Notes: generated from the sequence alone by a model not told the origin. 64,000 bases of DNA from an uncultured archaeon (GCA_963817525.1 CAWFOU010000007.1:576001-640000); one strand, 5' to 3'. Numbered from the stretch's first letter, positions 9,512-45,240 are shown. Numbers and translations: made by a program.

Positions 9512-9657
9512 GCGAGAGTAGCTAAGCCTGGTCAACGGCGGCGGGGCCGATTCGGCGCCGATACTCAAGATCAGATGTCGCTCCAGGGCCTACAGCGACG
9601 CAAGGAGAAATCCGCTCGTTTAGGCGTTCGTGGGTTCGAATCCCACCTCTCGCACCA
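9512..9657 (+). tRNA. tRNA-Leu(CAA) with two BHB introns (30/31: 9545-9562; 37/38: 9570-9609); CCA encoded
   Basis: Acceptor GCGAGAG/CTCTCGC-A-CCA; spliced anticodon arm GCGGA-CTCAAGA-TCCGC; long variable arm; T-loop TTCGAAT. Confidence 0.9.
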
Positions 9658-9673
9658 TAAAGAGCATCGAGGC

Positions 9674-10006
9674 CTAGTACACGAATGCCCTGACCGGCTT
9701 GGAAAGGAGGCCTCTCATGAACTCGACAAGGTCCTCCTTCACTTTGAACTCCTTCACGAGCAGCCGCCTGCCCGGGGCTGGGGCGTTCCCACCCTTCCTC
9801 TCGTACACCATCAGGGTGTAGGTGTCGTGGGGCGACCTCGTGGCGAAGACGAACTGGCCCCTCTTCCCCTGGTAGTCGCCGAAGGTCCTGATGCCGCTGT
9901 CGAGGTCGAGGAGGTCCACCTCCTCCACCAGCTTGGTGAAGGAGCCCACCTTCTTCTCGTAGAACAGTTCCCGGGACAACGGGCCCACGGGCGCCCTCCA
10001 CTCCAT
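9674..10006 (-). CDS. Hypothetical protein (110 aa)
   Basis: Host-like codon usage, ATG at 10006, divergent from cysS. Confidence 0.6.
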   Translation of the reverse strand: MEWRAPVGPLSRELFYEKKVGSFTKLVEEVDLLDLDSGIRTFGDYQGKRGQFVFATRSPHDTYTLMVYERKGGNAPAPGRRLLVKEFKVKEDLVEFMRGLLSKPVRAFVY

Positions 10007-10100
10007 ATGAGACTTGCGCTCGCGACAAAGGCTAACATACAAGCCGGGCCCGCCGTCATCGGCAAGACCTACAGTGACAACAGAGAGGCGGCGCAGCATC

Positions 10101-11297
10101 ATGCTCTTCGACACCATGAGCCAGAAGAAGGAGCCTCTGAAGGTCGTCCCAGGGGAGACCCTTCGGATGTTCGTGTGCGGGCCGACCGTCCAGAGCTTCA
10201 TACACGTGGGGAACGCGCGGACGCACGTCCTCTACGACGTGCTGGCGAGGTACCTGACGAGCCTCGGCGCCCGCGTGGACTTCCTCATGAACATCACCGA
10301 CGTGGACGACAGGATAACCGAGACCGCCAAGAGCGAGGGAGGGAGCCCCGCCGAGGTCGCGGACAAGTACACGCATGCGTTCTTCGAGGATATGCGAGCC
10401 CTGAAGGTCCAGTCCGTGACGAGCTTCGAGCGCGTCTCCGAATACGTCCAGGTGATGATAGACCAAATCACGATTCTCCTCGAGGATGGATACGCGTACC
10501 AGGCCGACGGGGTCGTCTACTTCGACACGTCCAAGTTCCCGGACTATGGTAAGCTCTCCCACCAGTCGAAGAGCGAGCTGTCGCTGAGGCCCCTGGAGCT
10601 CACCCCGAACAAGAGGAACCTCCTGGACTTTGCGCTCTGGCGGCCGGTCATCCTCGAGGAGGGTAAGTGGGACAGCCCGTGGGGGAGGGGGTCTCCGGGT
10701 TGGCACATCGAGGACACGGCCGTGACCCAGATGAGCTTCGGGCCGCAATACGACATCCACGGCGGCGCGTACGAGCTGATCTACCCGCACCATGAGGCCG
10801 AGATAGCGCAAGGGGAGTCCCTGACGGGTATGAGGCCGCTCGTGAGGTACTGGGTGCACACCGGGCTGCTCAACCTGAGCGGGCGGAAGATGTCAAAGTC
10901 AGCGGGGAACACCTTCCTGGTGAGGGAGCTCCTCAGGGAATACAGCGCCGACGAGCTGAGGCACTACCTCCTCTCGTGGCACTACAGGGACGACGTGGAG
11001 TTCAGCATCCCCCGGCTGAGGAAGGCGAGCAGGGCGTACCTGAGAGTTGCGGGCAAGGCCAGGAGGCTGAGGGCCTCCGCGAAGGCCGCGGGAGGCGCGG
11101 AGCGCTCCCCCGAGGAGGTGAGCAAGCGCCTCTCTCCGTTCTACTCGGCCATGGACGACGACATAGACACCCCCAGGGCGATAAGGTGGGTCGAGGAGGA
11201 GCTGGTCGGCGGGGGCTCGAAGGACGCGGCGCTGGACTATTCGGCGCTGCGCATAGTGTCTGACGTGCTTGGAGTGGACTACCTTGCCGAGCGGTGA
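10101..11297 (+). CDS. cysS: Cysteinyl-tRNA synthetase
   Basis: MFVCGPTV, HVGN (HIGH), NITDVDD, DFALW, PGWHIED, HHEAE, KMSKS. Confidence 0.93.
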   Translation: MLFDTMSQKKEPLKVVPGETLRMFVCGPTVQSFIHVGNARTHVLYDVLARYLTSLGARVDFLMNITDVDDRITETAKSEGGSPAEVADKYTHAFFEDMRALKVQSVTSFERVSEYVQVMIDQITILLEDGYAYQADGVVYFDTSKFPDYGKLSHQSKSELSLRPLELTPNKRNLLDFALWRPVILEEGKWDSPWGRGSPGWHIEDTAVTQMSFGPQYDIHGGAYELIYPHHEAEIAQGESLTGMRPLVRYWVHTGLLNLSGRKMSKSAGNTFLVRELLREYSADELRHYLLSWHYRDDVEFSIPRLRKASRAYLRVAGKARRLRASAKAAGGAERSPEEVSKRLSPFYSAMDDDIDTPRAIRWVEEELVGGGSKDAALDYSALRIVSDVLGVDYLAER

Positions 11298-12588
11298 TGA
11301 CAGGGAGTACGAGCTCAACGAGGTGGGCTGGTGGGGAAAGTGGGTCGACGAGACCGTCTGGGTCTCCAAGAACAGCTACGCCGTCTTCTCGGATGAATTC
11401 AAGGGCGAGGACTTCTACAACCGGGGCGGGTTCATTGGGGCGGAGAGGGTGCCCAGGGACGCCGTCGAGGCCATAGAGAAGGAGTTTGCGAAGAGGAAGA
11501 GGTCGAAGCCCTGCATCGTGGTGGAGGAAGGCAGGCCATGGAAGAAGGTGCGCGCGTCCTTGTCCAAGAGGGGTTATGCGGTGACAGACAGGATGCTGGT
11601 GATGGAGGGACGAAGGAAGGCCAAGCCCTCGGCGAACCCGGAGGTCGAGGTCGTGGTCGTGGGCCCTCGCCCGAAGGGCAAGGAGCTCCAGGAGTGGACC
11701 CGGGTCTATCTCCAGGCCTTCTACAGCGACCAGAGACTTGGCGACGTCGTCGGCAAGATAATGCGCAAGGCGGTCAAAGACAGGAAGGTCAGCGTGATCC
11801 TGGCGAGGGTGGGGAATGAGGCGGCCGGGTGTGCGGTCATGTACAGGTCGGCCGGCGCGGTGGCGGGGGCCTATTGCATCGGGACGGCCCCGAGCTTCAG
11901 GGGAAGGGGGGTGGCCGCGACGATGGTGGGGCTCATGCGCGACCTCGCCCAGGGGGAGAAGAGGCGGCTCATCCTGCAGACGCTGGCCTCCGACTCCGTG
12001 GAGGGGTTCTACCTCAAGCAGGGGTTCAGGCTGGCATACACCAAGACGTTCTTCGAGCACAGCCCCCGGAAGGCGTTGCCAGAGGATGGCGTGCCGTCCG
12101 GCGAGAGCTTCGGGGTCACCATAAACAGGGCCGCGGCCGCCGGGGTCACGGTGCCCTTCGTCGAGGTCTTCTCGGGGTTCGAGGCGGTCGACGCGGTGAG
12201 GGCCTTGTTCGGCCCGGACACGGAGGAGATAATCGGGAAACTGAAGATATCCCTGGATTCGCCCCGCGGCTACCTCCGGGTCGACGGCGAGACTGGCCAC
12301 GTGATAATCAACCCCGAGTACCTCAAGACAGGCCACGAGAGGCACCTCTACCTCGACGTGATACACGAGCTCGCCCACGTGCGGCAGTTCAGGGAGGGGA
12401 GGGAGCTCTACGACCGGAGGTATCCGTACTTCGAAAGGCCGACGGAGATAGAGGCCTACCAGGTCGCCGTGGAGGAGGCCCGGAGGATCGGCATGGGCAG
12501 GGAGGAGATAGTGGAGTACCTCAAGGTCGAATGGGTCACCGAGGATGAGTTCAAGAGGTTCGTCTCGATGATGCGCATCGAAGACTGA
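11269..12588 (+). CDS. GNAT acetyltransferase fused to a C-terminal HEXXH (zincin-like) domain
   Basis: IGTAPSFRGRGVA acetyl-CoA motif and FYLKQGF; C-terminal IHELAHVRQ...RPTEIEAY. Confidence 0.75.
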   Translation: MEWTTLPSGDDREYELNEVGWWGKWVDETVWVSKNSYAVFSDEFKGEDFYNRGGFIGAERVPRDAVEAIEKEFAKRKRSKPCIVVEEGRPWKKVRASLSKRGYAVTDRMLVMEGRRKAKPSANPEVEVVVVGPRPKGKELQEWTRVYLQAFYSDQRLGDVVGKIMRKAVKDRKVSVILARVGNEAAGCAVMYRSAGAVAGAYCIGTAPSFRGRGVAATMVGLMRDLAQGEKRRLILQTLASDSVEGFYLKQGFRLAYTKTFFEHSPRKALPEDGVPSGESFGVTINRAAAAGVTVPFVEVFSGFEAVDAVRALFGPDTEEIIGKLKISLDSPRGYLRVDGETGHVIINPEYLKTGHERHLYLDVIHELAHVRQFREGRELYDRRYPYFERPTEIEAYQVAVEEARRIGMGREEIVEYLKVEWVTEDEFKRFVSMMRIED

Positions 12589-12631
12589 GGTCGGGGTGAT
12601 GGTTTATACGCATCCGAGGTCTCAGACGGCC

Positions 12632-12943
12632 ATGAAGGCGATTTACGTGGTCTACGCCAACTGGTGCCCTCACTGCGTCCCGACCACGGTGGAGCCGGTC
12701 CAGCGCCTAGGGGCGCAGGTAGGAGTCCCTGTCGTCCTTTACGACATCGACACCGAGGACGAGGAGAAGGCTGACGACTTGGTGAAGAAGTATGGCGACT
12801 GGACCCCGGACTATTTGATACCCCAGGTCTTCGTCGAGGAGGACGACGGGAAAATCCGGCACGTCCTGACGGGAGACCGGCGAGGAATCCAGTACACCAA
12901 GCGGGCGGTAGAGGGCCTGGCGCAGAAGATAAAGTCAGGTTAG
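12632..12943 (+). CDS. Thioredoxin/glutaredoxin-like protein
   Basis: YANWCPHC motif and IPQVF cis-Pro loop. Confidence 0.8.
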   Translation: MKAIYVVYANWCPHCVPTTVEPVQRLGAQVGVPVVLYDIDTEDEEKADDLVKKYGDWTPDYLIPQVFVEEDDGKIRHVLTGDRRGIQYTKRAVEGLAQKIKSG

Positions 12944-12950
12944 TGGGCCG

Positions 12951-13643
12951 CTAGGACACCAGCGTACCTACGCGCTCCCCGAGCAGGGCCTTGCGGACGT
13001 TCGCCGGGAAGAAGCCGTTGGTGACCACGAGTGGGAGCTTGTGCTTCGCGATGAACCTCACTGCTACCGGGTCGACGATGCTGTGGATCCCTGGCCTGTG
13101 GCTGGACCCCCCGAGTATCTTGACGAACTCCTGGTAGGGCAGGCTGTGCAGGAGCTTGGCGTCCTTGTCCGTCCTGGGGTCGGCGGTATAGACGCCGTCC
13201 TGGTCGGAGGCCTTCACCAGCAGGTCGGCGCGCCAGGCGTCGCCGAGGATCGCGGCCACCGTGTCCGTGGTTATCCCCGGCCTGAGCCCGCCCATCACCC
13301 CGACCTTGCTCTTCTCGAGCTCGATTGTCATGCCCTGGATGGTGGTGGAGACCCTCTTGACGCCTAGCTCCATCGCGACGAGCTTCGCGTTCAGCCTCGA
13401 GGCCTCGATGGCGATCATGTCCTGGAGCTCCCGGGGCATCCCCAGCTCCTTTGCCGAGCCTATGTAGGAACGGGCGACCTGGCCACCGCCGACGACCACC
13501 CCCACGGAGCGCCCCGCCTTCAAGGCCTCTTGGACAACCTCCGCGTAACCGCTGAGGAGCTTGGCCTTGGGGGGCGAGCCGAGGACAGACCCTCCTATCC
13601 GAAGGACGACCTTGTTGGCTCCTGAGGCTGGCATGCTGGCCAC
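12951..13643 (-). CDS. pyrH: UMP kinase
   Basis: VVLRIGGSV, VVVGGGQVAR, MGGLRPGITTD, DGVYTADP. Confidence 0.9.
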   Translation of the reverse strand: MASMPASGANKVVLRIGGSVLGSPPKAKLLSGYAEVVQEALKAGRSVGVVVGGGQVARSYIGSAKELGMPRELQDMIAIEASRLNAKLVAMELGVKRVSTTIQGMTIELEKSKVGVMGGLRPGITTDTVAAILGDAWRADLLVKASDQDGVYTADPRTDKDAKLLHSLPYQEFVKILGGSSHRPGIHSIVDPVAVRFIAKHKLPLVVTNGFFPANVRKALLGERVGTLVS

Positions 13644-13693
13644 GTGCCCGGGGTAGTTTTTATAAACTAGCGCAGTAAACTTTCCTGTCCCGA

Positions 13694-13825
13694 ACTTTTT
13701 TTGATGGTGCTCTGGGGAGGGCGATTATCGGGAGTTTCTCCACGAAGGTAGTGCTGAAGCAGGGCCGGGCCGCGACGCAGGTTCTCAAAGAGGCGTTCAA
13801 CCTCAGCGACGACGTTATATCGTGA
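13694..13825 (+). pseudogene. Short relic resembling the C-terminal part of a VirB4/TraG-type ATPase
   Basis: Start-less frame FFDGALGRAIIGSFSTKVVLKQGRAATQVLKEAFNLSDD; resemblance judged from recalled consensus only. Confidence 0.4.
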
Positions 13826-13882
13826 GTCTTCTTGAACCTCCAAGAGGAATATGGGAGTAGAAGTGCGAAAGCTATACTCTTC

Positions 13883-15988
13883 CTACTTACTGTATTTCTC
13901 TCGGCGAGAATGGCTTCGTAGTTGCAATGCCCCCACCGCCACCAGCCAAATTGCTGCAATGGACCCCACCCCCCCTCTCGTCAAGGGAAAGGGGATGCTA
14001 ACCCCCGTCGTAGTTGCTGAAGTCGTCGTGGTGACGGTGCTGTTCCCCTCGCTCGATGTTACCACAGTCACCACACCGGATGGTATCGAAGCAGTGATGT
14101 AGATCGTCGAATCGGGCTGGATCTGAATCAATGGAATCGTCGCCCAATACGACGGCCCCGGGTTGTTGGTCGCGTTGGGGTTATCGTAACCGACCCACAA
14201 GGTAAAGTTGTAGTAGCCACTCGTATACCCGGCGGTCCCGTTGAAATAGAGGGGAGCGAGTTGCATGTAACCGGTGCCGTTGACGTCACCCATGTTGATG
14301 CAATAGTGCAATGACTCCTCGTTCCCCTCGTTGAATGGTCCATCTTGGATCACGATGACCGTCCCATTGGTCACGACCGTTCCCCCCTGGTCCGTGACCA
14401 CCTTCATGTAGACGGCCCCTTCTGTGGCCGGATTGAGTTGCACGTTCATCAATGTACTGCAGTCAGGGATGAGTTCACCAAGCCTCGTCGAGGTGCTGGT
14501 TGATGATGACTGAGTTGTGGGAGAAATCACCCAGACCGCCGCCTGACAGGAAACATACACATCCCCGTTCGATGTGTCGACGGAGCTTCCACTAGGAAAT
14601 GTGCAGAGTGGGACGGTCGCAACTACAGTATTCGTCGCTCCAGAGATGATAGATATGGTGCTGTTTATGAGGCATGCGCCCGCTTGGCACACGTCTTGCG
14701 TCTGACTCGGGACGTATATGTCGCCATTCATTGGATTGAAAACGGGTTGCCCTGCGCTGACCCCTAAAGTCGTGGTCAGGGCATTGGTTGAACCGGATAT
14801 GACCGACACGCCGCTTCCGGTGGGCACATAGACAGCACCATTGGCAGAATCGACTACGGGGGTCCCAGGGCCGTCGCCGACAACGACGTTGGTGAGCAGG
14901 GAGTTCGTCGCCCCCGATATCACGGATGTGGTGTTTCCCCCCGTGTTTGATACGTAGATGTCTCCGTTCGCGGGGTCGAACATGGGTGGCGAAGGGGAGT
15001 CAAACGACTGAAATTGATTCGTGAGAGGAAGCGGGGCGTAGGGGGAAGGGTATTCAAAATTGAGAGTAATGTTACCGACCAGCACATTTGTTTCCGTCGA
15101 GATGACCAGCACATATCCTGGCACATCTCCCACAGGGCAACCGTTGTTGCAAGGAAGGGTGCCCGTCATGTAGATGTACCCGTTCGCGGGGTCGAACACC
15201 CCTCCGTTGACGCCGGGCATGACGCTTACGTTTGCCACCAGCGTGTTGGTCGCCCCGGATATGACAGAGGTATAGTTGGAATGGTAGTTAGGGACATAGA
15301 TGTCACCGTTTTGAGGGTCAAAGATAGGGGTGACGGGGTAAGAGCCAACGGGAACCATCGAGACGAGTGTCTCTCCGGATACGATCGCGACCGTGCTAGA
15401 CAAACACGGGGGTGACGGAGAATAAGATGTCGAACAACACGATATGGGAACAGATGAACACGTGATGGACACGTAAAGATCTCCGTTGGTCGGGTCGATG
15501 AATGGCCTAAACGGGGAACTCCCTACAGCGCCCAGTCGTAATACTGCGAGAACCGTGTTTGTGCTGCTGGATATCACTGAGAGCGAGGCGTTACCCTGGG
15601 CGTATTCACCAGCACCGGCGGGCGGTGGTTGGATACTTGGCATATACAAGTATCCGTTGGCCGGGTCGAAAACCATTCCCCCAGGGCTGGGGGCCAGAAG
15701 GACCTGCCTTGAATTGAATGTTGTGATGCTCCTTCCGCTCGAAGAGGAACTCGAGGTCCGTGCCGACGTAGCGCTCGTGGACGTGGAGGATGATGTATTT
15801 GCGGAGGATGACAAAGACGAGGTGGAAGTCTGGTTCGTGCTCGTGGCAGCGATGGGAGATGACGTGGACGCAACCTGCTTGGACGAGAATGAGGCGTAGA
15901 CGAAGATCGAAAGTACGATTAGCAGGGCCACGAAGAGGGCAGCCATCGGCGCACCGGACCCGTTGCCCTTTGGGCTTTTCGTATTCAT
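13883..15988 (-). CDS. Membrane-anchored YncE/YVTN-type beta-propeller surface protein
   Basis: N-terminal TM plus Ser/Thr linker; repeated FDPxNGDIYVxN...VSVISGATN units; C-terminal hydrophobic segment with basic tail. Confidence 0.85.
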   Translation of the reverse strand: MNTKSPKGNGSGAPMAALFVALLIVLSIFVYASFSSKQVASTSSPIAATSTNQTSTSSLSSSANTSSSTSTSATSARTSSSSSSGRSITTFNSRQVLLAPSPGGMVFDPANGYLYMPSIQPPPAGAGEYAQGNASLSVISSSTNTVLAVLRLGAVGSSPFRPFIDPTNGDLYVSITCSSVPISCCSTSYSPSPPCLSSTVAIVSGETLVSMVPVGSYPVTPIFDPQNGDIYVPNYHSNYTSVISGATNTLVANVSVMPGVNGGVFDPANGYIYMTGTLPCNNGCPVGDVPGYVLVISTETNVLVGNITLNFEYPSPYAPLPLTNQFQSFDSPSPPMFDPANGDIYVSNTGGNTTSVISGATNSLLTNVVVGDGPGTPVVDSANGAVYVPTGSGVSVISGSTNALTTTLGVSAGQPVFNPMNGDIYVPSQTQDVCQAGACLINSTISIISGATNTVVATVPLCTFPSGSSVDTSNGDVYVSCQAAVWVISPTTQSSSTSTSTRLGELIPDCSTLMNVQLNPATEGAVYMKVVTDQGGTVVTNGTVIVIQDGPFNEGNEESLHYCINMGDVNGTGYMQLAPLYFNGTAGYTSGYYNFTLWVGYDNPNATNNPGPSYWATIPLIQIQPDSTIYITASIPSGVVTVVTSSEGNSTVTTTTSATTTGVSIPFPLTRGGVGSIAAIWLVAVGALQLRSHSRREKYSK

Positions 15989-16205
15989 CGGGAAGCGTTT
16001 TGAGCGTCCAGTCCAAATTAAAGGCTGTGATGCTGTGTTCTACAGTCCCGCGGGATATAGGTCAGCCTCGACTTCCGGGGGCATGCAGAGAATCAAGGTA
16101 ACTGGATATAGCAGTAAGTTGGGGTGAGGTTTCATAAATTAGACTAGTGCACTTTCATCTCCACTACCTCAATCCGAGGCCCCGAATCAGCTGCAATAGA
16201 GCGGA

Positions 16206-16994: not shown

Positions 16995-17154
16995 TTGGTC
17001 CGCAATTGCTCATCTCGTGATTAATACCTTTGTCCGAATCCCCGGCGGGGGCGCAATGAACCCGATACACGGCGAATGTTCTCCCGCTTCTTCACCAACG
17101 TATGTTCCATCGGGTTCAATAGCGACCGGAACTCTCCGAATTTCTTGAGGCGCC

Positions 17155-29040: not shown

Positions 29041-29172
29041 AGCCACGGGAGGGAGTGTCAATCACTGCATGCGGCGCTTTCCGCACGCAGATGATTTTTG
29101 ATCCCTCGACCTGCTGCTTGCTTGGCTTCTAGCCTACAAGGCAGCTGCTCTACCAGGCTGAGCTACCGTGGC
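29041..29172 (-). tRNA. tRNA-Thr(TGT) with two BHB introns (37/38: 29119-29134; 59/60: 29055-29096)
   Basis: Acceptor GCCACGG/CCGTGGC-T; spliced anticodon arm GCTGC-CTTGTAA-GCAGC; central helix CTTG/CAAG; T-loop ATCAAAT after splicing. Confidence 0.9.
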
Positions 29173-29319: not shown

Positions 29320-29937
29320 ATGACATGCGTCCTCAAGGATGCCACAGTTGCTGCTGCGGCTAGCCTGGTCATCTCGGCGGTATCATATTTTGTGACGGTC
29401 AAGGGCGTGCATCTTTGGCTCCCGCGGATTGACGCGGTGGGAACTGCCGTCGTCCACGGCTTCCCAATCCCATACGCGGCCTACTTCCCAACCAACGAAT
29501 CGTCCTACCTGTTTTACCCTCTGAACTTCGGCGGTGACTACCTGATTTGTTCCGCAGTCGCTTTTCTCGTGATGGCCGCTTTTACTGTCAGGAGGCTGAT
29601 TCTTGCTTCGATCTCGGGGCTCGCCGTGACCGCCCTGACCTTGCTTCTGCCATCGTTGGCCTTGGCTACCCCTGAGAATCTACCTTTGGAGTGTTCAGGC
29701 ACGCCGATGGGATTTCCGTTCGAGTACTTGTTTCGTCTCGAATGTTTTACGTCCGGTGCTGTTTCGTATCAGTTCAGCCCGCTGAGCGCGGTGGTGGACT
29801 ACGTGTTGTGGTTGGGGGTGAGCTTCTCCGCCATCGGCCTTTGCTTCCTGCTCCTCGCCTCGACAAGGAGGCACCGAATCTCGAGAGTTCAAATCCCTCC
29901 CGTGGCTCTCCACTCCGCCGTTAATGGTCAGTTGTGA
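29320..29937 (+). CDS. Hypothetical membrane protein with internal duplication
   Basis: Two TM-GFP(I/F)xY...PL....DY-TM units. Confidence 0.6.
   Translation: MTCVLKDATVAAAASLVISAVSYFVTVKGVHLWLPRIDAVGTAVVHGFPIPYAAYFPTNESSYLFYPLNFGGDYLICSAVAFLVMAAFTVRRLILASISGLAVTALTLLLPSLALATPENLPLECSGTPMGFPFEYLFRLECFTSGAVSYQFSPLSAVVDYVLWLGVSFSAIGLCFLLLASTRRHRISRVQIPPVALHSAVNGQL
29881..29910 (+). repeat. Copy of the tRNA-Thr 3' end without the T-loop intron (att-like relic)
   Basis: TCGAGAGTTCAAATCCCTCCCGTGGCTCTC versus spliced tRNA-Thr TCGAGGGATCAAATCCCTCCCGTGGCT plus trailer CTC: 28 of 30 identical, opposite orientation. Confidence 0.85.
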
Positions 29938-32112: not shown

Positions 32113-32267
32113 TGGTGGGGTCGCCCGGATTTGAACCGGGGGTCTCAAGCGTTCTCGAACGCGCCTTGTTAGGGACGTTCCCGAGGCATCTTCTCTGATG
32201 ATTTGAAGCCTAGACCAGACTAGCCCCAAGTTGAATCGAGTTCAACGTTGGCCTAGCCGACGACCCC
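32113..32267 (-). tRNA. tRNA-Pro(CGG) with three BHB introns (15/16: 32220-32252; 29/30: 32188-32202; 37/38: 32152-32179); CCA encoded
   Basis: Acceptor GGGGTCG/CGACCCC-A-CCA; spliced anticodon arm CAAGC-CTCGGGC-GCTTG; central helices GGCT/GGCT (wobble), CTTC/GAAG, CTCG/CGAG. Confidence 0.87.
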
Positions 32268-36609: not shown

Positions 36610-36732
36610 GTTCCGAGATGGCGGGTGATATTCATATAGAAAAGCATTCTGGATGGCGGCGCACGGCATTATCGGGCGCTTGGATTACCTCCGAAAGGAA
36701 AGATTACATAGCTACTGCGGTCCGTCGAAGTC

Positions 36733-36884
36733 GCCGGGGTAGCATAGCTTGGCCCATTGCGCCGGCTACGCCCAAGCGTGGGCGAGACTCATAATCGGCC
36801 AAGATGTGAAATCCGGAGAGGATAGCGATATCCCCGAAGGTCGCGGGCTCAAAATGCAGCGGCATGAGAATCCCGCCCCCGGTA
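36733..36884 (+). tRNA. Elongator-type tRNA-Met(CAT) with four BHB introns (30/31: 36766-36786; 37/38: 36794-36810; 45/46: 36819-36839; 59/60: 36854-36870)
   Basis: Removing the four inserts gives a 76-nt cloverleaf: GCCGGGG/CCCCGGT-A, CCGGA-CTCATAA-TCCGG, AGGTC, GCGGG-CTCAAAT-CCCGC. Confidence 0.88.
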
Positions 36885-37065
36885 CCTTTTTTGGACTGCC
36901 TTAGCGGAAGGAGGACTTAGTTGTGGTCGTGGAGTGCCTACCGGCCCCGGAGATTCGCAATCGAATTCTCGAGGGTTATGATGTCTGCGCGAAGATTCGG
37001 ACGGTCCAAAGGAAGATTCGAGGAAATTCTTTGCGGTGTGAAAAATCGCTGAAGTTCATTGTAGG

Positions 37066-37139
37066 AGCCGCGATCGGGAATTGAACCCGAGACCTTTACC
37101 TTACCAAGGTAACGCTCTACCAGACTGAGCTATCGCGGC
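37066..37139 (-). tRNA. tRNA-Thr(GGT), no intron
   Basis: GCCGCGA/TCGCGGC-T; TTACC-TTGGTAA-GGTAA; T-loop TTCAATT. Confidence 0.95.
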
Positions 37140-37204
37140 GCAGGCGCGCCACCTAGCTAACGGGATTTATCTATTCTGAGGGAGGAAGGGAGTTTGCTGA
37201 TGCA

Positions 37205-37672: not shown

Positions 37673-37727
37673 GCCGCGTACTCCGGTTAGATTCTTTAAG
37701 CCGTTGTTCGCGGCCCGTCTGTTCTGC

Positions 37728-37812
37728 GCGGGAGTCGCCCAGCCTGGTCAACGGCGCGAGGCTCAGGACCTCGTCCCTCAGGGGTTCGTGGGTTCAAATC
37801 CCACCTCCCGCA
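37728..37812 (+). tRNA. tRNA-Leu(CAG), no intron
   Basis: GCGGGAG/CTCCCGC-A; CGAGG-CTCAGGA-CCTCG; long variable arm; T-loop TTCAAAT. Confidence 0.95.
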
Positions 37813-37842
37813 CTTTTCAACCCGCCGCGAAGACTAGTTGTT

Positions 37843-38706: not shown

Positions 38707-38711
38707 TGTTC

Positions 38712-39659
38712 TCACAATGTGTCCTTAATCAGATTCAGGTACGATTCCTCGAGCGCAGAGGAAGTTGGGGTGAAGCTAACTACTCCTATGTTGATTCCGA
38801 CAAGCTCAACGAGGATTTTCTCCTGGACGTCAAGCCCGCCGCTGCAATGAATCCTCAGTCGCTTGTCGTCCAGCTTCTCTACCGAGACCACCCCAGGAAG
38901 TTTGGTGATTGAGCCGTCGAGCACCCCAGGCTGCACCGGGCGCGTGAGCCCTACGTCCACTATGTTGTCTCCACCTGAGAACTTTCCGGTGACGTTCTGG
39001 AGTGTGTCGTAGACCAGCAACTTCCCATGGTCTATCATGGCGACCTCGTCGCAGACGTCCTCGACTTCGCTGAGGATGTGAGAGCTCATGAAGATGAGGC
39101 GGTCCTTGTTCTTCAAGGCCTTGACTATGCCTCTGACCTCGCTCATCCCTCTCGGGTCCAGACCAGTGGTTGGTTCATCGAGTAACACTATCCTAGGGTC
39201 GCTCAGGAGGGCTGAGGCTATGCAGACCCTCTGCTTCATGCCCTTCGAGAACTTGCCGACCCTCTTGTCGATCCATTCCTGCATCGCCACCTCCGTGATG
39301 ACTTCCTCTATCCTATTCCTTCTCTCGGCGTGGGGGACCCCTCGAAGTTCCGCCACCATCCCGAGGGCCTCTCTAGGCGTCAGCGAGGGATAGATCTCCG
39401 GCGTTTCGATGACGGTGCCTACCGACGCCAGGGCGGCCTTCTTGTGCGTGTGGACGTTGTCGCCGTTGATCAGTGCTTCGCCGGAGGAGGCCCTTATCAG
39501 GTCCGTGAAAATCTTGAGTGTGGTCGTCTTGCCCGCGCCGTTGGGCCCAAGGAAGCCGACGCACTTCGAGCCCTCGATCTTCAGGTTGAGGTTCGAGAGG
39601 GCCGTGAACGAACCGTACACCTTCGAGAGGTTCACGGCCTCAAGTGATGGATTCGTCAA
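38712..39659 (-). CDS. ABC transporter ATP-binding protein
   Basis: GPNGAGKTT, FSKGMKQR, LLDEPT, SSH. Confidence 0.93.
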   Translation of the reverse strand: MTNPSLEAVNLSKVYGSFTALSNLNLKIEGSKCVGFLGPNGAGKTTTLKIFTDLIRASSGEALINGDNVHTHKKAALASVGTVIETPEIYPSLTPREALGMVAELRGVPHAERRNRIEEVITEVAMQEWIDKRVGKFSKGMKQRVCIASALLSDPRIVLLDEPTTGLDPRGMSEVRGIVKALKNKDRLIFMSSHILSEVEDVCDEVAMIDHGKLLVYDTLQNVTGKFSGGDNIVDVGLTRPVQPGVLDGSITKLPGVVSVEKLDDKRLRIHCSGGLDVQEKILVELVGINIGVVSFTPTSSALEESYLNLIKDTL

Positions 39660-39682
39660 GGGTTGCTCACCTCGATTTCCCC

Positions 39683-40456
39683 TTAGCTAACTACCTTTCT
39701 GAACAGGTAGAGGGTTATGCCCATGGTAACGATGGCTATCCCCGCGATGAATACGAGGGCGCCGAGCTCCGCGCTCAAAGAGAAGAAGCCCGGGATTGAG
39801 AGGTCCCTGACCGCGTTGACTGCGTAGCTTATCGGGTTGACCTTGGAGACGTACTGCATCCACGTCGGCATGAAGCTCAAGGGGACCAGCGCAGTGCTCA
39901 TGAAGAGCAGGGGGAATGTCATGAAGGCGCCTATCCCGAAGACCGTCTCAGAGCTCTTCGTCCTGAGGCCGAGTGCGAGGGAAATGCCCGACCACGCCAG
40001 CCCGAAGAAGGCGATGATGAACAAGATTAGCAGGACGCCGGGGATTCCAGAAGCCAGCCTGAACCCCAACAAGTATGCCAGCCCGAGTATGATGATCGAT
40101 TGGACCGTGACCCGGAACGCGTCCGTCGCCAGCCTTCCGAGCAGTATCGCGGGCCGGCTCACCTGCGTGACGAGCATCTTCTGCAGGAATCCTGAGTTGA
40201 GGTCCTCGACGATGCTGGTCCCCGATTGGAGCGCACTGCTGAACGCATTCTGCATCAATATGCCGGCGGATGCGTACTCGAGATAGCTCACGCCCTTGGG
40301 GAAACCCGGGAGCAGGTTGAGCGAGTGGAAGAGCTGGGTGAAGAGGACAAGGAAGATGATTGGCTGGAACAGAGAGAAGAATATCAGGATTGGGTTGCGG
40401 ACGAGCTTCTTCAGGGCTCTGACGAAGAGGTTCCGCGTGTCGAATAGGATGGTCAT
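39683..40456 (-). CDS. ABC-2 (DrrB-like) permease
   Basis: SLFQPI, GFLQKML, FPLLFMS, NPISYAVNAVR. Confidence 0.88.
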   Translation of the reverse strand: MTILFDTRNLFVRALKKLVRNPILIFFSLFQPIIFLVLFTQLFHSLNLLPGFPKGVSYLEYASAGILMQNAFSSALQSGTSIVEDLNSGFLQKMLVTQVSRPAILLGRLATDAFRVTVQSIIILGLAYLLGFRLASGIPGVLLILFIIAFFGLAWSGISLALGLRTKSSETVFGIGAFMTFPLLFMSTALVPLSFMPTWMQYVSKVNPISYAVNAVRDLSIPGFFSLSAELGALVFIAGIAIVTMGITLYLFRKVVS

Positions 40457-40462
40457 TTCCTT

Positions 40463-41482
40463 TTATCTCCTCCTGCTCCCAAATCTTCCCGTGCTGACTT
40501 CCTTCACAAGCTCTTCTCTCCGTATCCTCTTGCCAGTGTGCTTCAGGAAGACGTCGTCCAAGCTCGGAGTGGAGATGTTGATTGATATCAACTGGATGTC
40601 TGTCTTGTCGAAGGTCCTGACGAGCTCGGGCACGAAGAGCCCTCCGTTCTTCACGTAGAGGGTGAGGCCTTCCTCTGTGTCGACCACGCTTATCACTTCG
40701 GGTATCTGTGATAGGAGGGTCTTCGCGGCAGCCTTCGTCGAGGCTCTGTCTCCGGTACCGGTCCTGTTCTCCACCGAAATGGTGATTGCGTCGGCGCCAA
40801 TCTCCTTCTTCAGGCCCAGCGGCGACCCCTCGGCTACAATCTTACCCGAGTCTACGATGCAGAGGCGCTGGCACAGCCGATCCGCTTCTTCCAGGTATTG
40901 CGTGGTCAGGAAGATGGTAATCCCTTCCTTCTTGTTGAGCACCTCGAGGTAGTCCCACACCGTCGCGCGCGACTGCGGGTCGAGTCCTGTTGTCGGCTCG
41001 TCGAGGAAGAGCACCTTCGGCTTGTGAACCAGAGTAGAGGCAAGGTCAAGCCTCTTTTTCATTCCGCCGGAGTAGCGTCCAGCCCGCTTGTCGGCCGCGT
41101 CCTTCAGCCCGACCACCTCCAGGAGATAGTCGACCCTCTCCTCGAGCTCCTTGCCATGCATCTGTTGCAGGTGTCCTTCGAGAATCATGTTCTCCCTCCC
41201 AGTCAGCTCGGGATCTACGGAGGTGTCTTGGCTCTGGACTCCGATGATTTTCCTAATCTCCCTGGGGTCCTTGTCCAAGTCGTAGCCGGCGACCGATACC
41301 GTGCCCGAGGTCTTCCTCAGAAGGGTGGTGAGGATCTTGATGGTCGTGCTCTTGCCCGCGCCGTTAGGCCCGAGGAAGCCGAAGAACTCGCCCTCCTGCA
41401 CGTTGAACGATATGCCATCGACTGCCTTGGTGCCGTCCGCATAGACCTCAACGAGGTCGCTGACGGTGATGATGTCGGCCAT
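40463..41482 (-). CDS. ABC transporter ATP-binding protein (DrrA-like)
   Basis: GPNGAGKST, YSGGMKKR, FLDEPTTGLD, TTQYLEEAD, PSLDDVFL. Confidence 0.92.
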   Translation of the reverse strand: MADIITVSDLVEVYADGTKAVDGISFNVQEGEFFGFLGPNGAGKSTTIKILTTLLRKTSGTVSVAGYDLDKDPREIRKIIGVQSQDTSVDPELTGRENMILEGHLQQMHGKELEERVDYLLEVVGLKDAADKRAGRYSGGMKKRLDLASTLVHKPKVLFLDEPTTGLDPQSRATVWDYLEVLNKKEGITIFLTTQYLEEADRLCQRLCIVDSGKIVAEGSPLGLKKEIGADAITISVENRTGTGDRASTKAAAKTLLSQIPEVISVVDTEEGLTLYVKNGGLFVPELVRTFDKTDIQLISINISTPSLDDVFLKHTGKRIRREELVKEVSTGRFGSRRR

Positions 41483-41541
41483 GGCGCTCTCTCCCGGATG
41501 CGGCAAGGTTGGTTTTATAAGTATATCTAATACGATATCGT

Positions 41542-41551
41542 TATCATTCAT
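41542..41551. promoter_or_regulatory. AT-rich divergent promoter region between the ABC operon and the PadR gene (palindrome ACGATATCGT at 41532-41541 is a candidate operator)
   Basis: TATA-like TTTTATAA and CTTATATA on either side of a perfect 10-bp palindrome; operator role is inference. Confidence 0.3.
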
Positions 41552-41607
41552 GTTGCAATGTAGTATTTAGATTGCTTATATAGAGCCGACTGCGCAGAAC
41601 GTAACAA

Positions 41608-42162
41608 ATGGAGTCCGGAGCGAAGAAGTGGATACACCCACAGGCCGTCCCTCGAGGCATCCTTCGGCTCTACATCCTGTCCATGCTGTCCAAGCGCGAA
41701 GAGACGGGGTATTCAATAATGCGGACGATTGAGGACAAGACGGAAGGCGCGTGGAGGCCCGGCCCCGGGACGGTCTACCCGTTGCTGAGGAGCTTGCTCA
41801 AGGAAGGCCTGCTCGAGAAGGCCGCGGCTGGGCGGGATACCGGTGCCATCGTGAAGTACTCTGTGACCAAAAAGGGGAAGCAGGAGCTGGAAGAGATGCA
41901 GAGGACGCTTGCCTCGGCGGGGAAGAGAGAGCGGGTCATGATTCGCCTCTTCGCCGACCTGCTGCCGGCAGAGGTGTGGGCTTCGGCCTTCGTGAATCGC
42001 GGGAGGGAGATTTTCGACGTGTTCCAAGAGGTCATCTCCCAGATTCCCCAGCCCCAGCGGGAGGCGGTGCTCAAGGACGCCCGTGCGATGTTGGAGCTGA
42101 ACGTGTCGTGGGTCGACTCCCAGCTCAAGCCCAAGAAGAAGCAGATTATAGAGGAGAGATAG
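41608..42162 (+). CDS. PadR-family transcriptional regulator
   Basis: LRLYILSML...TGYSIM...WRPGPGTVYPLL..L..EGL...YSVTKKG. Confidence 0.9.
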   Translation: MESGAKKWIHPQAVPRGILRLYILSMLSKREETGYSIMRTIEDKTEGAWRPGPGTVYPLLRSLLKEGLLEKAAAGRDTGAIVKYSVTKKGKQELEEMQRTLASAGKRERVMIRLFADLLPAEVWASAFVNRGREIFDVFQEVISQIPQPQREAVLKDARAMLELNVSWVDSQLKPKKKQIIEER

Positions 42163-42178
42163 CGGCGCCGCTGGCGGT

Positions 42179-42508
42179 CTAGGCGCTGACCTGTATCTTA
42201 GAAAGCGTCGCCTTGCCCAAGTCGGTTATCTCGTACTTCCCCGCGTCGCCGAAGAACTGGATGTTATACCTGACGAAGCCCAGCGCCAGGAGTTCCTTCA
42301 TGTGGGACAAAGTCCTCCACTGAGAGTTGTTCGAGAGCAGCTTGTCGAGCTGGGCGTTCGAGAGGCCTTCGGCGCTTTTTGCGAGGGCCTCGAGGATGCT
42401 GACCAGCTCGTCCTCTTGGGCTATTTGCCGCAGGGTCTCCTCCTGCCCCTTGGGGTCAGACGGCCACGTCCAGATGCCCTTCATCGGGTCAGGTCGTGTC
42501 GATGACAT
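42179..42508 (-). CDS. Hypothetical winged-helix protein
   Basis: ILEAL...GLSNAQL...L.ALGFV...YEITDLGK. Confidence 0.6.
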   Translation of the reverse strand: MSSTRPDPMKGIWTWPSDPKGQEETLRQIAQEDELVSILEALAKSAEGLSNAQLDKLLSNNSQWRTLSHMKELLALGFVRYNIQFFGDAGKYEITDLGKATLSKIQVSA

Positions 42509-42598
42509 TGATAAGGACGACGTGTGATTGAATTCGTTTCACGATTGAATCAACTGTTTTTCGTCCCGCCGGACAAAAGGAATTGAGGTGTCGTGTGA

Positions 42599-42862
42599 GT
42601 GCTCTTTATGGAAGTAATCACCGAATACGTGGATTGCAGAACCGAGCTAGAAGACCGGATTCGTTCGCTGGAATCGGAGCAGTCGGCCCTCCTGACAGAG
42701 ATTGCAAGCCTCAAGGAGAAGCTTACGACCCTGGAGCTTGAGAGACACGCTAACTCTCTCTCCAACGAGGTCGAGGCCTTGAGGACAGAGAAGGCAGTCT
42801 TGGAAGAGAAGGTCGCTACTTACTCCAGCCCGATAGCGCCGGCCGAAAGCTACCAAGTCTAA
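42599..42862 (+). CDS. Hypothetical coiled-coil protein
   Basis: Heptad-rich L/E/K sequence. Confidence 0.55.
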   Translation: MLFMEVITEYVDCRTELEDRIRSLESEQSALLTEIASLKEKLTTLELERHANSLSNEVEALRTEKAVLEEKVATYSSPIAPAESYQV

Positions 42863-42877
42863 GCCAGTCTTTACCGA

Positions 42878-43303
42878 CTAGCGAAGCTTGGCCGCCTTCT
42901 CCTCTAGCTCTCCTTTTTCTTTTCTCAGATAGGCGACGTGCTTCTCCAGCGCGTCGAGCTTGGCCTCGAGGACCCTTGTCTCGGTGTCCTTCTTGCTGCG
43001 CTCCAGGCCCTTCTGGAGGTCTGAGTATTCCTTGTCCATCATCTGGACGCGCTTCTCGAGGTCCTGGTTGGTCTTCTTCAGGGTCTTGATGTCCGTCTGG
43101 ATTTTTTCCATCTGGTCGTCAGGGACGACCAAGTAGTGCTGCCTGCTCACGACGGTCGGGAACTTTGTGCCGCATTTTTCACAGCCGTACATCCCGACCT
43201 TCCTCTGGGTCAGGCCGCGTTCGCCCTCCTTCGGCTCGACAATTACGGTGAAGACTTTGGAAGGAGTGGATACCGCAGTCCCGCAGTTTGGGCAAGAAGG
43301 CAA
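42878..43303 (-). CDS. Zn-ribbon protein (Cren7-like N-terminus) with C-terminal coiled coil
   Basis: CPNCG...PSKVF...KVGMYGCEKCGTKF followed by about 80 aa of heptads. Confidence 0.6.
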   Translation of the reverse strand: MPSCPNCGTAVSTPSKVFTVIVEPKEGERGLTQRKVGMYGCEKCGTKFPTVVSRQHYLVVPDDQMEKIQTDIKTLKKTNQDLEKRVQMMDKEYSDLQKGLERSKKDTETRVLEAKLDALEKHVAYLRKEKGELEEKAAKLR

Positions 43304-43343
43304 GCGCTAGCGGCCGCATGTAATTCGTAGCGTTAAATCTTTG

Positions 43344-43634
43344 CTACTCGCGGATGGACTCTAGCTCGGAGACGGCTGACCAAAGGATGACCCTGGCGAA
43401 TGATGACATGTTCGGGTCCTGAGCGACCTCGTCGAGCATGCTGATCGCGTTCGCGGCCCTCACGGCGAGGCTGACCTTCGGGTCTTGGAGGGCGACCATT
43501 GAGTCCTTCACTATCTTCCTTATGTTGCGCGGGGTGATGTTTGAGTCTGCTATCTGCTGGAGGCTCGCGCTAGCCTTTGCTAGCTTGCCGTCGTTGGCCT
43601 GTTGTTTTTTCTCTCTGTTTGTCTTGGTGCTCAT
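43344..43634 (-). CDS. UPF0147 family protein
   Basis: DSNITPRNIRK...RAANAISMLDEV.QDPNM...ARV.LW..VS.LESI. Confidence 0.88.
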   Translation of the reverse strand: MSTKTNREKKQQANDGKLAKASASLQQIADSNITPRNIRKIVKDSMVALQDPKVSLAVRAANAISMLDEVAQDPNMSSFARVILWSAVSELESIRE

Positions 43635-43752
43635 GATTGCTATCAGGTGGTTTAGGCGTTGGAGTTTCCTGTGCCTTCCACCCTAGCATATTTGGCTTTC
43701 TATGACGGGCTACAGTGTTTATAACTCTGGAGAAGGCTGTGGTGGAATATAA

Positions 43753-44094
43753 TTGAGCACGACCGCAGCCAAGACGAAGACGACCGTCGAGCTGATGAGG
43801 AGAGGGGCCGTCATGATGAAGGAGCCCTGCCAGGTTTGCAATGGGGTCCAGCTGAGGTACAAGGGGAGGGTATACTGCACGAATCATGACGACCTGACGG
43901 CTGCTCTTCAGGCAAAGGAGATACTCTACCCGGACGTCGCGGAAGACCTGAAGAATTTGCTCTTGGTCAAGCTCAAGGAGTCGATGTCTCTGTTGGAGAA
44001 TGAGAAGGACCCGGAAGAGCTCGACAGGCTGGTCTCCCTAATGACCAGGTATGTCGAGCTGCTGAGGAAAGTGGAGCCGGCTCAAAGAGCTTAA
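43753..44094 (+). CDS. UPF0148 / autoantigen-p27-like Zn-ribbon protein
   Basis: ELMRRGAVMMKEPCQVC...GRVYC. Confidence 0.8.
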   Translation: MSTTAAKTKTTVELMRRGAVMMKEPCQVCNGVQLRYKGRVYCTNHDDLTAALQAKEILYPDVAEDLKNLLLVKLKESMSLLENEKDPEELDRLVSLMTRYVELLRKVEPAQRA

Positions 44095-44117
44095 ATCGAC
44101 AAACAGGTCGCTCTCCG

Positions 44118-44597
44118 TTGCAAATGGTCCTCAGGATAGGTCAGAGGGTCCCCGACTTTACCCTCCCAGACACGAACAAGCACGACAGGAAGCTGTCAGA
44201 GTTCACCCAGAAGGGGAAAACGGTGCTACTCTTCTTCCCGTTCGCATTCTCCGGCGTGTGCGACAAGGAGGTGTGCGTCTTCAGGGATGACGCTGCGAAG
44301 TTCAACGCCCTGGGCGCCCAAGTCGTGGGGATAAGCGTCGACAGCCTATTCACGCTGAAGGTGTTTGCGCAGACGTACAACCTGCAGTTCACGCTGCTGA
44401 GCGATTTCAACAAGAAGGTGTCGAGGGCCTACGGCGTGCTCCACGATACATGGGTGGCCTTCGGATACAAGGGCGTCCCCAAGAGGGCGGCCTTCGTGCT
44501 GGACGGCAAGGGAATCCTCAGGTACAAGTGGACGACCGACATCCCTTCCAACGAGCCGCCCTACGAAGAGATCCTCGCGGCGGTCGGCAAGCTCTAA
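44118..44597 (+). CDS. Peroxiredoxin (AhpC/TSA family)
   Basis: PDFTLPD, FFPFAFSGVCDKE, GISVDS, LLSDFN. Confidence 0.9.
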   Translation: MQMVLRIGQRVPDFTLPDTNKHDRKLSEFTQKGKTVLLFFPFAFSGVCDKEVCVFRDDAAKFNALGAQVVGISVDSLFTLKVFAQTYNLQFTLLSDFNKKVSRAYGVLHDTWVAFGYKGVPKRAAFVLDGKGILRYKWTTDIPSNEPPYEEILAAVGKL

Positions 44598-44650
44598 GCG
44601 GGGAGTCTAGGGTCTCCTTTTATAGGAGTTTGACATCGGAGTCTTCGAAA

Positions 44651-45013
44651 ATGTCGTCCGAGGCAACGAAGATGATCAAACCCGTCGTGGACATCACGGA
44701 GAACGCCGCCTCGGAGCTGATAGTCTACCTCGCAAAGCAGGGCAAGCCCATGGCGGGATTGAGGGTTTTCGTGTCGGCTGGGGGGTGTTCTGGCTTGTCC
44801 TACGGCATGGTGCCCGAAGAGAAGTCGACCGACGACGACTATGTCATAGTGGAGCATGGTGCGAAGCTAATCGTCGACAAGTCCAGCATGCCGTTCATCG
44901 CAGGGTCTGTGATCGACTTCCAGCCTGACAAGCTGATGGGCGGGGGTTTCGTGGTGAAGAACCCGAACGCGGTCTCGACGTGCGGCTGCGGCGAGTCTTT
45001 CAAGACCGAGTAA
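44651..45013 (+). CDS. A-type Fe-S cluster carrier (HesB/IscA/ErpA family)
   Basis: GGCSGLSY and NPNAVSTCGCGESF. Confidence 0.92.
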   Translation: MSSEATKMIKPVVDITENAASELIVYLAKQGKPMAGLRVFVSAGGCSGLSYGMVPEEKSTDDDYVIVEHGAKLIVDKSSMPFIAGSVIDFQPDKLMGGGFVVKNPNAVSTCGCGESFKTE

Positions 45014-45061
45014 GGCAAGAATACTCCAAACCTATATTGGGTCGGAATCCCAGCGCACGGC

Positions 45062-45240
45062 GCCGGGGTGGCGGAGTCTGGTTAACGCGCGGGCAGTTCG
45101 CTCCGCTCCAAAAGAGTGCGCGAATCCGCATCTCGAGATCATCCGACTTGACAGCCCGTGACCTAACGGTCATGTGGGTTCAAATCGCGCGGGGAAAGGA
45201 CGTTTTACCTTCCCCGCGGGTGGAAGTCCCACCCCCGGCG
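45062..45240 (+). tRNA. tRNA-Ser(CGA) with three BHB introns (31/32: 45095-45131; 37/38 or 38/39: about 45139-45153; 59/60: 45185-45226)
   Basis: GCCGGGG/CCCCGGC-G; spliced anticodon arm CGGGC-CTCGAGA-GCCCG; variable arm GACC/GGTC; central helices GCGG/CCGC, TCGA/TTGA, TTCA/TGGA. Confidence 0.87.

Follow-up and report, generated by a model that had tools for sequence, protein, structure and literature searches.

tRNA genes and introns in the window

The DNA under study is a 64,000-nucleotide (nt) stretch of a metagenome-assembled genome (MAG) of an uncultured archaeon (GCA_963817525.1, CAWFOU010000007.1:576001-640000), hereafter the window; it is part of contig C7 of an assembly of 2.82 Mb with 61% GC, 95% completeness and 8.75% contamination. 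Seven transfer RNA (tRNA) genes lie in it, five of which are interrupted by 14 introns in all: two each in tRNA-Leu(CAA) and tRNA-Thr(TGT), three each in tRNA-Pro(CGG) and tRNA-Ser(CGA), and four in a tRNA with the anticodon CAT, as obtained by hand parsing and scripted excision. The introns are 15-42 nt long and occupy seven sites, namely 37/38 (five introns), 59/60 (three), 30/31 (two) and 15/16, 29/30, 31/32 and 45/46 (one each).

The five interrupted genes were located by reading around T-arm and D-arm signatures. Excision of the introns yields products that ARAGORN reads, in five of five cases, as Leu(caa), Thr(tgt), Pro(cgg), Met(cat) and Ser(cga), with stems paired at 7/7, 3-4/4, 5/5 and 5/5 positions. 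An automatic finder, written after the hand parse, uses the T loop as anchor together with conserved nucleotides, an acceptor stem paired 7/7 and rules for the bulge-helix-bulge (BHB) splicing motif; it reproduced the introns of each of the five genes and added no other tRNA in the window. Likewise, an Rfam search of the window at E<=10 returned no additional tRNA pieces, and no match to the Rfam group I or group II intron families was found there. Gaps without open reading frames (ORFs) were no guide to the tRNA genes, which are covered by spurious ORFs. The count of 14 introns in five of seven tRNAs had been proposed in an earlier inspection of the window (the sequence-only reading) and agrees with the hand parse, with ARAGORN on the spliced forms and with the finder; the seven named sites and their multiplicities equal those that we derived, and the two genes described as intron-free, Thr(GGT) and Leu(CAG), are intact in ARAGORN and Rfam. 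The range given there, 9512..45240, runs from the first base of the Leu(CAA) gene to the last of the Ser(CGA) gene.

The genes and introns are listed below in window coordinates. H is the number of pairs formed out of four in the central helix, and h and h′ are the lengths in base pairs (bp) of the outer and the intron-internal flanking helix; hBHBh′ is the strict motif, and hBH and HBh′ are its relaxed forms.

9512..9654, plus strand: tRNA-Leu(CAA) gene, nucleotide 1 to discriminator, CCA encoded next; ARAGORN Leu(caa) when spliced
9545..9562, plus strand: Leu(CAA) intron 30/31, 18 nt; H=4, h=2, h′=4, strict BHB
9570..9609, plus strand: Leu(CAA) intron 37/38, 40 nt; H=3, outer helix 1 bp, 6 bp without the 30/31 intron
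29041..29172, minus strand: tRNA-Thr(TGT) gene, T loop ATCAAAT (A54); spliced form identical at 74/74 positions to the ortholog in genome G018
29119..29134, minus strand: Thr(TGT) intron 37/38, 16 nt; H=4, h=5, h′=3, strict BHB
29055..29096, minus strand: Thr(TGT) intron 59/60, 42 nt; H=3, h=5, h′=5
32116..32267, minus strand: tRNA-Pro(CGG) gene, CCA encoded after it; mature form intron-free in genome G010 (locus L112)
32220..32252, minus strand: Pro(CGG) intron 15/16, 33 nt; H=4, h=0, h′=4 (HBh′), 7 registers
32188..32202, minus strand: Pro(CGG) intron 29/30, 15 nt; H=4, h=3, h′=2, strict BHB
32152..32179, minus strand: Pro(CGG) intron 37/38, 28 nt; H=4, outer helix 2 bp, 7 bp without the 29/30 intron
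36733..36884, plus strand: tRNA(CAT) gene, Met or Ile2 undistinguished (Met(CAT) below); G1-U72, T loop CTCAAAT (C54), followed by CC and a T run
36766..36786, plus strand: Met(CAT) intron 30/31, 21 nt; H=4, h=1, h′=5 (HBh′)
36794..36810, plus strand: Met(CAT) intron 37/38, 17 nt; H=3, h′=2, outer helix 2 bp, 5 bp without the 30/31 intron
36819..36839, plus strand: Met(CAT) intron 45/46, 21 nt; H=3, h=0, h′=5, 3 equivalent registers
36854..36870, plus strand: Met(CAT) intron 59/60, 17 nt; H=4, h=5, h′=3, strict BHB
37064..37139, minus strand: tRNA-Thr(GGT) gene, intron-free; found by ARAGORN, Rfam (72.2 bits) and the finder
37728..37813, plus strand: tRNA-Leu(CAG) gene, intron-free; found by ARAGORN, Rfam (49.9 bits) and the finder
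45062..45240, plus strand: tRNA-Ser(CGA) gene, discriminator G; ARAGORN Ser(cga) when spliced
45095..45131, plus strand: Ser(CGA) intron 31/32, 37 nt; H=4, h=0, h′=6 (HBh′)
45138..45152, plus strand: Ser(CGA) intron 37/38, 15 nt; H=2, h′=2, h=1, rising to 7 without the 31/32 intron
45185..45226, plus strand: Ser(CGA) intron 59/60, 42 nt; H=4, h=5 (T stem), h′=1

The D, variable and T arms of tRNA-Leu(CAA) are near-identical to those of intact Leu genes.

Splice-site motifs at the junctions

The geometry of the motif was set on a plain canonical intron of this genome, that of tRNA-His(GTG), in which the last six exon bases comprise a 4-nt helix strand and two bulge bases, with the same arrangement at the intron 3′ end. 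At 13 of the 14 window junctions three to four of the four pairs in the central helix are made (H at least 3) together with a flanking helix; six junctions adopt the strict hBHBh′ form, and the remainder are hBH or HBh′. The weakest motif of the 14 is that of Ser 37/38, in which two of four central pairs stand between an outer helix of 7 bp and an inner one of 2 bp. Random site pairs of the observed lengths passed the BHB rules in 1565 of 200000 trials (0.78%), while the window introns passed in 14 of 14 cases, or 13 of 14 before a clause admitting H=2 was added.

Gain and loss of introns among orthologs

Orthologous genes in related genomes, which are kin of the source genome rather than independent samples, allowed the predicted boundaries to be compared with genes that carry other sets of introns. 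For Thr(TGT), genome G018 encodes an intron-free gene (L081) that is identical at 74 of 74 positions to the predicted mature form, including the ATCAAAT T loop. The 59/60 intron is absent from all nine resolved orthologs of the same genus and from the ortholog of one other family, and the 37/38 intron is absent from seven of these nine, the other two having an intron at or next to 37/38; across the genus this gene thus carries 0, 1 or 2 introns. The 26 loci for Pro(CGG) and Pro(TGG) in the relatives display all combinations from 0 to 3 introns, at 15/16, 29/30, 37/38 and once at 22/23, in an almost invariant mature sequence, and L112 represents the exact mature Pro(CGG) of the window with all three introns missing. 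In Met(CAT), whose mature form shows 95-100% identity across 12 orthologs of the genus, the introns at 30/31, 37/38 and 59/60 are present in 12/12, and the 45/46 intron is precisely missing in 9/12, leaving three orthologs with four introns and nine with three. Owing to their exact absence at the predicted boundaries in orthologs, 6 of the 14 introns (both of Thr, all three of Pro and Met 45/46) are verified.

The remaining genes are more uniform. Both Leu(CAA) introns are kept in 9/9 resolved genus orthologs, one of which has a third intron in the variable arm, and the intron lengths vary from 13 to 18 nt at 30/31 and from 23 to 41 nt at 37/38. All three Ser(CGA) introns are kept in 8/8 resolved orthologs, with lengths of 26-38 nt at 31/32 and 41-48 nt at 59/60; for 9 further Ser loci the finder returned nothing. 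Three distant Ser orthologs have a stronger 37/38 motif (H=3, h=8, h′=3), and compensatory changes occur in the acceptor and variable-arm stems of distant orthologs. No intron-free orthologs were found among the relatives for the two Leu introns, the three Ser introns and the three other Met introns.

In the more distant orthologs, exon identity is 0.85-1.00, as against 0.47-0.82 for introns at the same site, which also change in length. Exons evolve more slowly than introns, and single introns are present or absent among members of the genus. Four DNA runs on soil, all from one study and possibly including the source sample, yielded contigs that span the Met and Pro genes with zero differences; none of the joints in them skips an intron. 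Among sequencing runs, none of RNA is listed as containing the 9-kb stretch that was looked up. As the contigs of the four runs agree over these two genes, the inserts are not assembly errors.

Alternative explanations

The most plausible departure from the parse given above is that it is right in essence while some boundaries or counts are off, for instance at Ser 37/38, Pro 15/16, Met 45/46 or in the anticodon arms with two introns. Repeated letters at the junctions do allow between 1 and 7 registers, with seven equivalent ones for Pro 15/16, three for Met 45/46 and two to five for several 37/38 introns, and Ser 37/38 reaches only H=2 in the register named, whereas one base further on it has H=4 without flanking helices. 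In each ambiguous case, however, a single register has an accepted motif, and it is the one chosen in the sequence-only reading; the seven registers of Pro 15/16, for example, arise from a 6-nt direct repeat, and the motif forms in the 15/16 register only. Moreover, the mature sequence is identical whichever register is used, and the better 37/38 motif of the distant Ser orthologs speaks for the position assigned there. We consider such an error unlikely. Another objection is that the freedom to delete two to four segments builds tRNA-like sequences from much DNA. Early permissive, intron-aware searches did assemble many false four-intron 'tRNAs' from coding sequence and missed true parses, which is why they were replaced by the strict finder, and even the latter produced 12 low-scoring false loci in the genome and four in a reversed-sequence control (2 x 900 kb). 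Yet none of the four control loci passed the filter, and the false loci stand apart by introns of 40-126 nt, stems that pair imperfectly and unusual T loops, whereas the five window genes combine 7/7 acceptor stems and 5/5 T stems with introns of 15-42 nt and have orthologs without the introns. On the strength of the controls and the intron-free orthologs, over-fitting is rejected for these five genes, and its probability appears negligible to us.

It is also very unlikely that the five loci represent pseudogenes in decay, or genes broken by small inserts that no splicing removes, with the real tRNAs residing in the unassembled 5% of the genome. The completeness and contamination of the MAG leave room for this, four expected anticodons were not found in the genome searches, an orphan 3′ fragment lies near the rearranged Thr(TGT) locus, and T loops lacking U54 occur. 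Against it, searches of the genome gave no second gene for any of Leu(CAA), Thr(TGT), Pro(CGG) and Ser(CGA), within the genus the exons remain 95-100% conserved as the introns diverge, stems show compensatory changes, motifs at the junctions are far above chance, and the same interrupted genes are present in relatives assembled into one or a few contigs (G007, G009 and G018). Taken together, the 14 inserts are very probably ordinary archaeal protein-spliced tRNA introns, present at unusually high density in the genome of a soil member of the Nitrososphaerota. Several points weigh against this assignment. We infer splicing itself, its order and the specificity of the enzyme from sequence. The boundaries of the Leu introns, the Ser introns and three of the Met introns are drawn from cloverleaf, motif and conservation. 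The Ser 37/38 motif is weak (H=2), and the clause that admits it was added after the motif had been seen; since the BHB rules are moreover our own and were adjusted to this genome, a score of 14 of 14 is in part circular and 13 of 14 is the fair count. Finally, two of the five genes lack U54 (A in Thr, C in Met), a departure that functional tRNAs seldom show, even though relatives share it.

Splicing machinery and probable order of intron removal

The genome encodes two homologues of the tRNA-splicing endonuclease EndA, as reflected by two matches each to PF01974 and PF02778. EndA alpha (187 amino acids, contig C1) is most similar to the catalytic subunits known from A. pernix, S. tokodaii and P. 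aerophilum, with which it aligns from one end to the other (E values between 3e-42 and 9e-38); the catalytic Tyr, His and Lys are aligned with those of the solved catalytic subunits, and a further Lys lies opposite residue 44 of the A. pernix chain in an ungapped alignment with 3P1Z_B. The specificity loop and K44 are credited with the cutting of relaxed and non-canonical sites in the available part of PMC5829648. EndA beta (~190 amino acids, contig C7) is 29% identical to alpha and has Lys at the position of the catalytic His. The predicted enzyme is thus of the two-subunit (alpha-beta)2 type with a conserved specificity-loop lysine, the type assigned to Thaumarchaeota and Crenarchaeota (PMC5829648, in its available part; PMC4090602). 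It resembles the structurally characterized enzymes of A. pernix (3P1Z/3AJV), S. tokodaii (2CV8) and P. aerophilum (2ZYZ) in having two subunits, the catalytic residues and the loop lysine, features known here from sequence alone, but differs from them in that beta is most similar to full-length EndA units. In the sequence-only reading, a heavy intron load was held to require a broad-specificity endonuclease; an enzyme predicted to be of this kind is encoded in the genome.

The RtcB ligase is encoded as well (PF01139, 479.7 bits). Its match (C1:1102130-1104943, minus strand) is split into profile positions 1-50 and 49-426 by an in-frame insert of ~1.4 kb within a 996-amino-acid frame, which may be an intein.

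On this basis, we propose the following route to the mature tRNAs. Each gene would be transcribed as one precursor, in which exon-intron pairs fold into the BHB or the relaxed hBH or HBh′ motif; the (alpha-beta)2 EndA, whose catalytic subunit bears the loop with the lysine, would cut in the two 3-nt bulges, and RtcB would ligate the exons. In the Leu, Pro, Met and Ser precursors, the intron at 29/30, 30/31 or 31/32 breaks the 5′ strand of the anticodon stem and would leave first, so that the stem could then serve as the outer helix of the 37/38 motif. The introns at 29/30, 30/31 and 31/32 use an intron-internal helix (h′ of 2-6 bp) that is independent of the anticodon stem, and the outer helix at 37/38 in these four genes extends from 1-2 bp to 5-7 bp on removal of the neighbouring intron. 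Because this helix grows only once the neighbour is gone, ordered two-step removal is likely. Removal of close introns in order is described in the available text of the tRNAscan-SE 2.0 paper (PMC8450103).

Lineage and genome-wide intron load

The 55 closest loci to EndA alpha all belong to MAGs named as Nitrososphaerota, Thaumarchaeota, Nitrososphaerales or unclassified archaeon or bacterium, with identities of 94% to 'Thaumarchaeota archaeon AcS1-13' and 69% to 'Ca. Gagatemarchaeum stordalenia', and the GC content is in line with the Gagatemarchaeum table of PMC10640624. To judge by these loci and the GC content, the source is a Gagatemarchaeum-like, non-ammonia-oxidising soil thaumarchaeon of group I.1c and therefore not a member of the Thermoproteales.

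In the whole genome, the strict finder identified 35 tRNA genes with 40 introns at 14 positions, 25 of the 40 being non-canonical; 0, 1, 2, 3 and 4 introns occur in 13, 10, 7, 4 and 1 genes, respectively. Further genes were Lys(CTT) with two introns (37/38 and 53/54), Cys(GCA) with one (37/38) and the intact Val(GAC), Arg(CCT) and Ser(GGA), giving 40 genes with 43 introns. Provisional hand parses of Asn, Gly(TCC) and Lys(TTT) contribute three genes with five introns, for a total of 43 genes and 48 introns. Asn(GTT) and Lys(TTT) are ARAGORN-positive when spliced, yet three of their four introns fail the BHB rules, and the Gly(TCC) parse is misread by ARAGORN as Pro(agg). This Gly(TCC) candidate (C7:~743100-743220, minus strand) has a 42-nt D-loop intron and C instead of U at position 33.

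The tally is a lower bound and counts Arg(GCG) twice, the duplicate being on a small contig. A D-arm-anchored search that allowed shorter introns added one gene, and a relaxed T-anchor pass covered the contigs through C7, with C8-C15 lying outside it. Ala(GGC), Phe(GAA), Val(TAC) and a third CAT gene were not found genome-wide, where a hunt for anticodon-loop motifs was too noisy. The two Arg(GCG) genes (C3:7277-7371 and C1:834086-834180) are near-identical and each has a 19-nt 29/30 intron; one of them lies on a 33-kb contig, and the duplication may reflect strain heterogeneity or the reported contamination.

The load amounts to ~1.1 introns per gene genome-wide, compared with 2.0 in the window. 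The heavy load seen in the window is thus not confined to it. The rest of the genome is less loaded, 23 of the 35 genes identified by the finder having no intron or a single one, but the average still reaches ~1.1 per gene. The observation that the introns share no obvious sequence was borne out by all-against-all local alignment of the 40 introns, with a top score of 9 as against 12 for shuffled sequences. Given that intron similarity does not exceed the shuffled null, there is no sign of transposition of an intron family.

Genomes of the genus that are at least 90% complete have 22-27 Rfam tRNA matches, and those of twelve other families of the order have 11-41. Low counts of this kind, a rough proxy, suggest that the trait is order-wide. 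Two genomes of other families, G024 and G023, yield only 11 and 21 matches at 94% and 99% completeness, and their tRNA genes may be even more interrupted than those described here.

Detection by generic annotation tools

With default settings ARAGORN identified two of the seven window tRNAs, Thr(GGT) and Leu(CAG); the same two were detected by the Rfam tRNA model, together with a weak 32.3-bit match at 9512-9654. With the option -i, ARAGORN mislabelled Leu(CAA) (9512-9657) as Ser(cga), Ser(CGA) (45062-45241) as Leu(caa) and Pro(CGG) (32113-32267) as Val(aac); elsewhere in the genome it returned wrong isotypes and 'introns' of 300-1700 nt, and its output was used as a pointer only. In the whole genome, 27 tRNAs exceeded the Rfam cut-off. 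Under-annotation, which had been suspected from the window, is hence demonstrated for these two generic tools, to which half of the tRNA genes of the genus are invisible or mislabelled. As the genes are missed unless a BHB-aware tool is used and its output checked, tRNA counts, codon-usage inferences and MAG quality scores will be off for group I.1c.

Comparison with known systems

Some Crenarchaeota and Thaumarchaeota are described as having tRNA genes with multiple non-canonical introns in the available text of Chan et al. 2021 (PMC8450103), where tRNAscan-SE 2.0 includes a Thaumarchaeota-specific BHB model and reports 107 non-canonical introns over its Thaumarchaeota genomes. The suggestion in the sequence-only reading of an independent expansion in this lineage is consequently too strong, as multi-intron tRNA genes are already documented there for the phylum. 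The introns examined here resemble those of that paper in phylum, in their BHB or relaxed motifs, in the use of canonical and non-canonical sites and in ordered removal. They differ in that the same text gives 'up to three' introns per archaeal gene, a statement that the four-intron gene exceeds, and in that its available sections do not discuss the group I.1c family. The word 'intron' is absent from the Gagatemarchaeaceae genome paper (PMC10640624). A literature search on noncanonical tRNA introns in Nitrososphaera returned nothing relevant, and among the matches listed for four-intron BHB tRNA genes there were only red-alga tRNA and phage group II introns. The description thus seems new at the level of the family and of a kind already known, although the per-genome table of PMC8450103 may list closer relatives.

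Thermoproteales, studied by Sugahara et al. 2007 and 2008 and by Fujishima et al. 2010 (via PMC4090602 and the available text of PMC8450103), have a mean of 0.84 introns per gene and a maximum of 1.54 in P. calidifontis (71 in 46 genes), according to PMC8450103. The present genome is similar to them in its load of ~1.1 per gene, in the use of the sites 29/30, 30/31, 45/46 and 59/60, in an EndA predicted to be of the type with a specificity loop, and in an intron content that differs between close relatives. Unlike Thermoproteales, it belongs to another phylum and to a mesophilic soil lineage, and whereas their introns form families of similar sequence at different sites, as expected from transposition, the 40 introns here are without such similarity.

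In focal families of Asgard archaea, tRNA genes carry on average 2.2 intervening sequences, with as many as five in a single gene, and a standard annotator misses about 30% (bioRxiv 10.64898/2026.10.13.758758, in its available part, which cites Valentin-Alvarado et al. 2024). In common with them, many genes here have at least two introns, and these are enriched at boundaries capable of forming a BHB; the accessible part of the preprint also reports that annotators miss D-arm introns and derives repeated gains from intron-free relatives, as is the case here. By contrast, Asgard archaea belong to a different superphylum, and the focal families of the preprint are more loaded. Since these families carry more, neither the four-intron gene nor the 2.0 introns per gene of the window are records.

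The known picture of archaeal tRNA splicing is unchanged by these data, which add a mesophilic soil lineage to those with a heavy load (~1.1 introns per gene, and four in one gene). In addition, the genus offers a clean record of intron gain and loss, with orthologs that differ by single introns (Pro 0-3, Met(CAT) 3-4, Thr(TGT) 0-2) as raw material for dating gains and losses and for asking how BHB introns arise.

Rearrangement at Thr(TGT) and position 54 of the T loop

The Thr(TGT) gene is inverted compared with G018, and the conserved downstream flank resumes ~630 bp past an orphan fragment (~30545 onward):

29881..29916, plus strand: orphan 3′ part (~positions 49-73) of tRNA-Thr(TGT), not a gene, inverted relative to the gene

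The fragment lies ~700 bp from the 5′ end of the gene on the other strand. It shares 16-17 identical nt with the 3′ end of the gene, aligns with the 3′ part of the tRNA of G018 and has a normal TTCAAAT T loop. Pfam detected no integrase among the eight ORFs around Thr(TGT). Such a locus might reflect a single event of recombination or repair between tRNA-gene copies, or at the attachment site of an integrating element; if the rearrangement and the 59/60 intron arose together, this would be a first concrete footprint of such introns entering a gene. It is unlikely, in our view, that gain and loss of BHB introns in this genus can be followed as a natural time series, fresh enough to reveal the mechanism at the DNA level.

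To our knowledge, U54 is near-universal in tRNAs. Position 54 is not U in five of ~40 tRNAs of this genome: Thr(TGT) and Glu(TTC) have A there, and the CAT gene, Tyr(GTA) and Thr(CGT) have C; the loci outside the window are C1:227741-227897, C7:401511-401603 and C8:23860-23955. The same letters recur in relatives with or without the 59/60 intron.

The window also holds the 16S rRNA gene and the 5′ 1.8 kb of the 23S rRNA gene (1-3569, minus strand). The intron-free Thr(GGT) gene, here and in G018, has an A-T-rich anticodon stem and a TTCAATT loop and is of a different sequence type from that of the other resolved members of the genus, in which the gene at the syntenic place is of the GCCTCGG or GCCACGG type, has A54 and is interrupted by one or two introns; this looks like a gene replacement.

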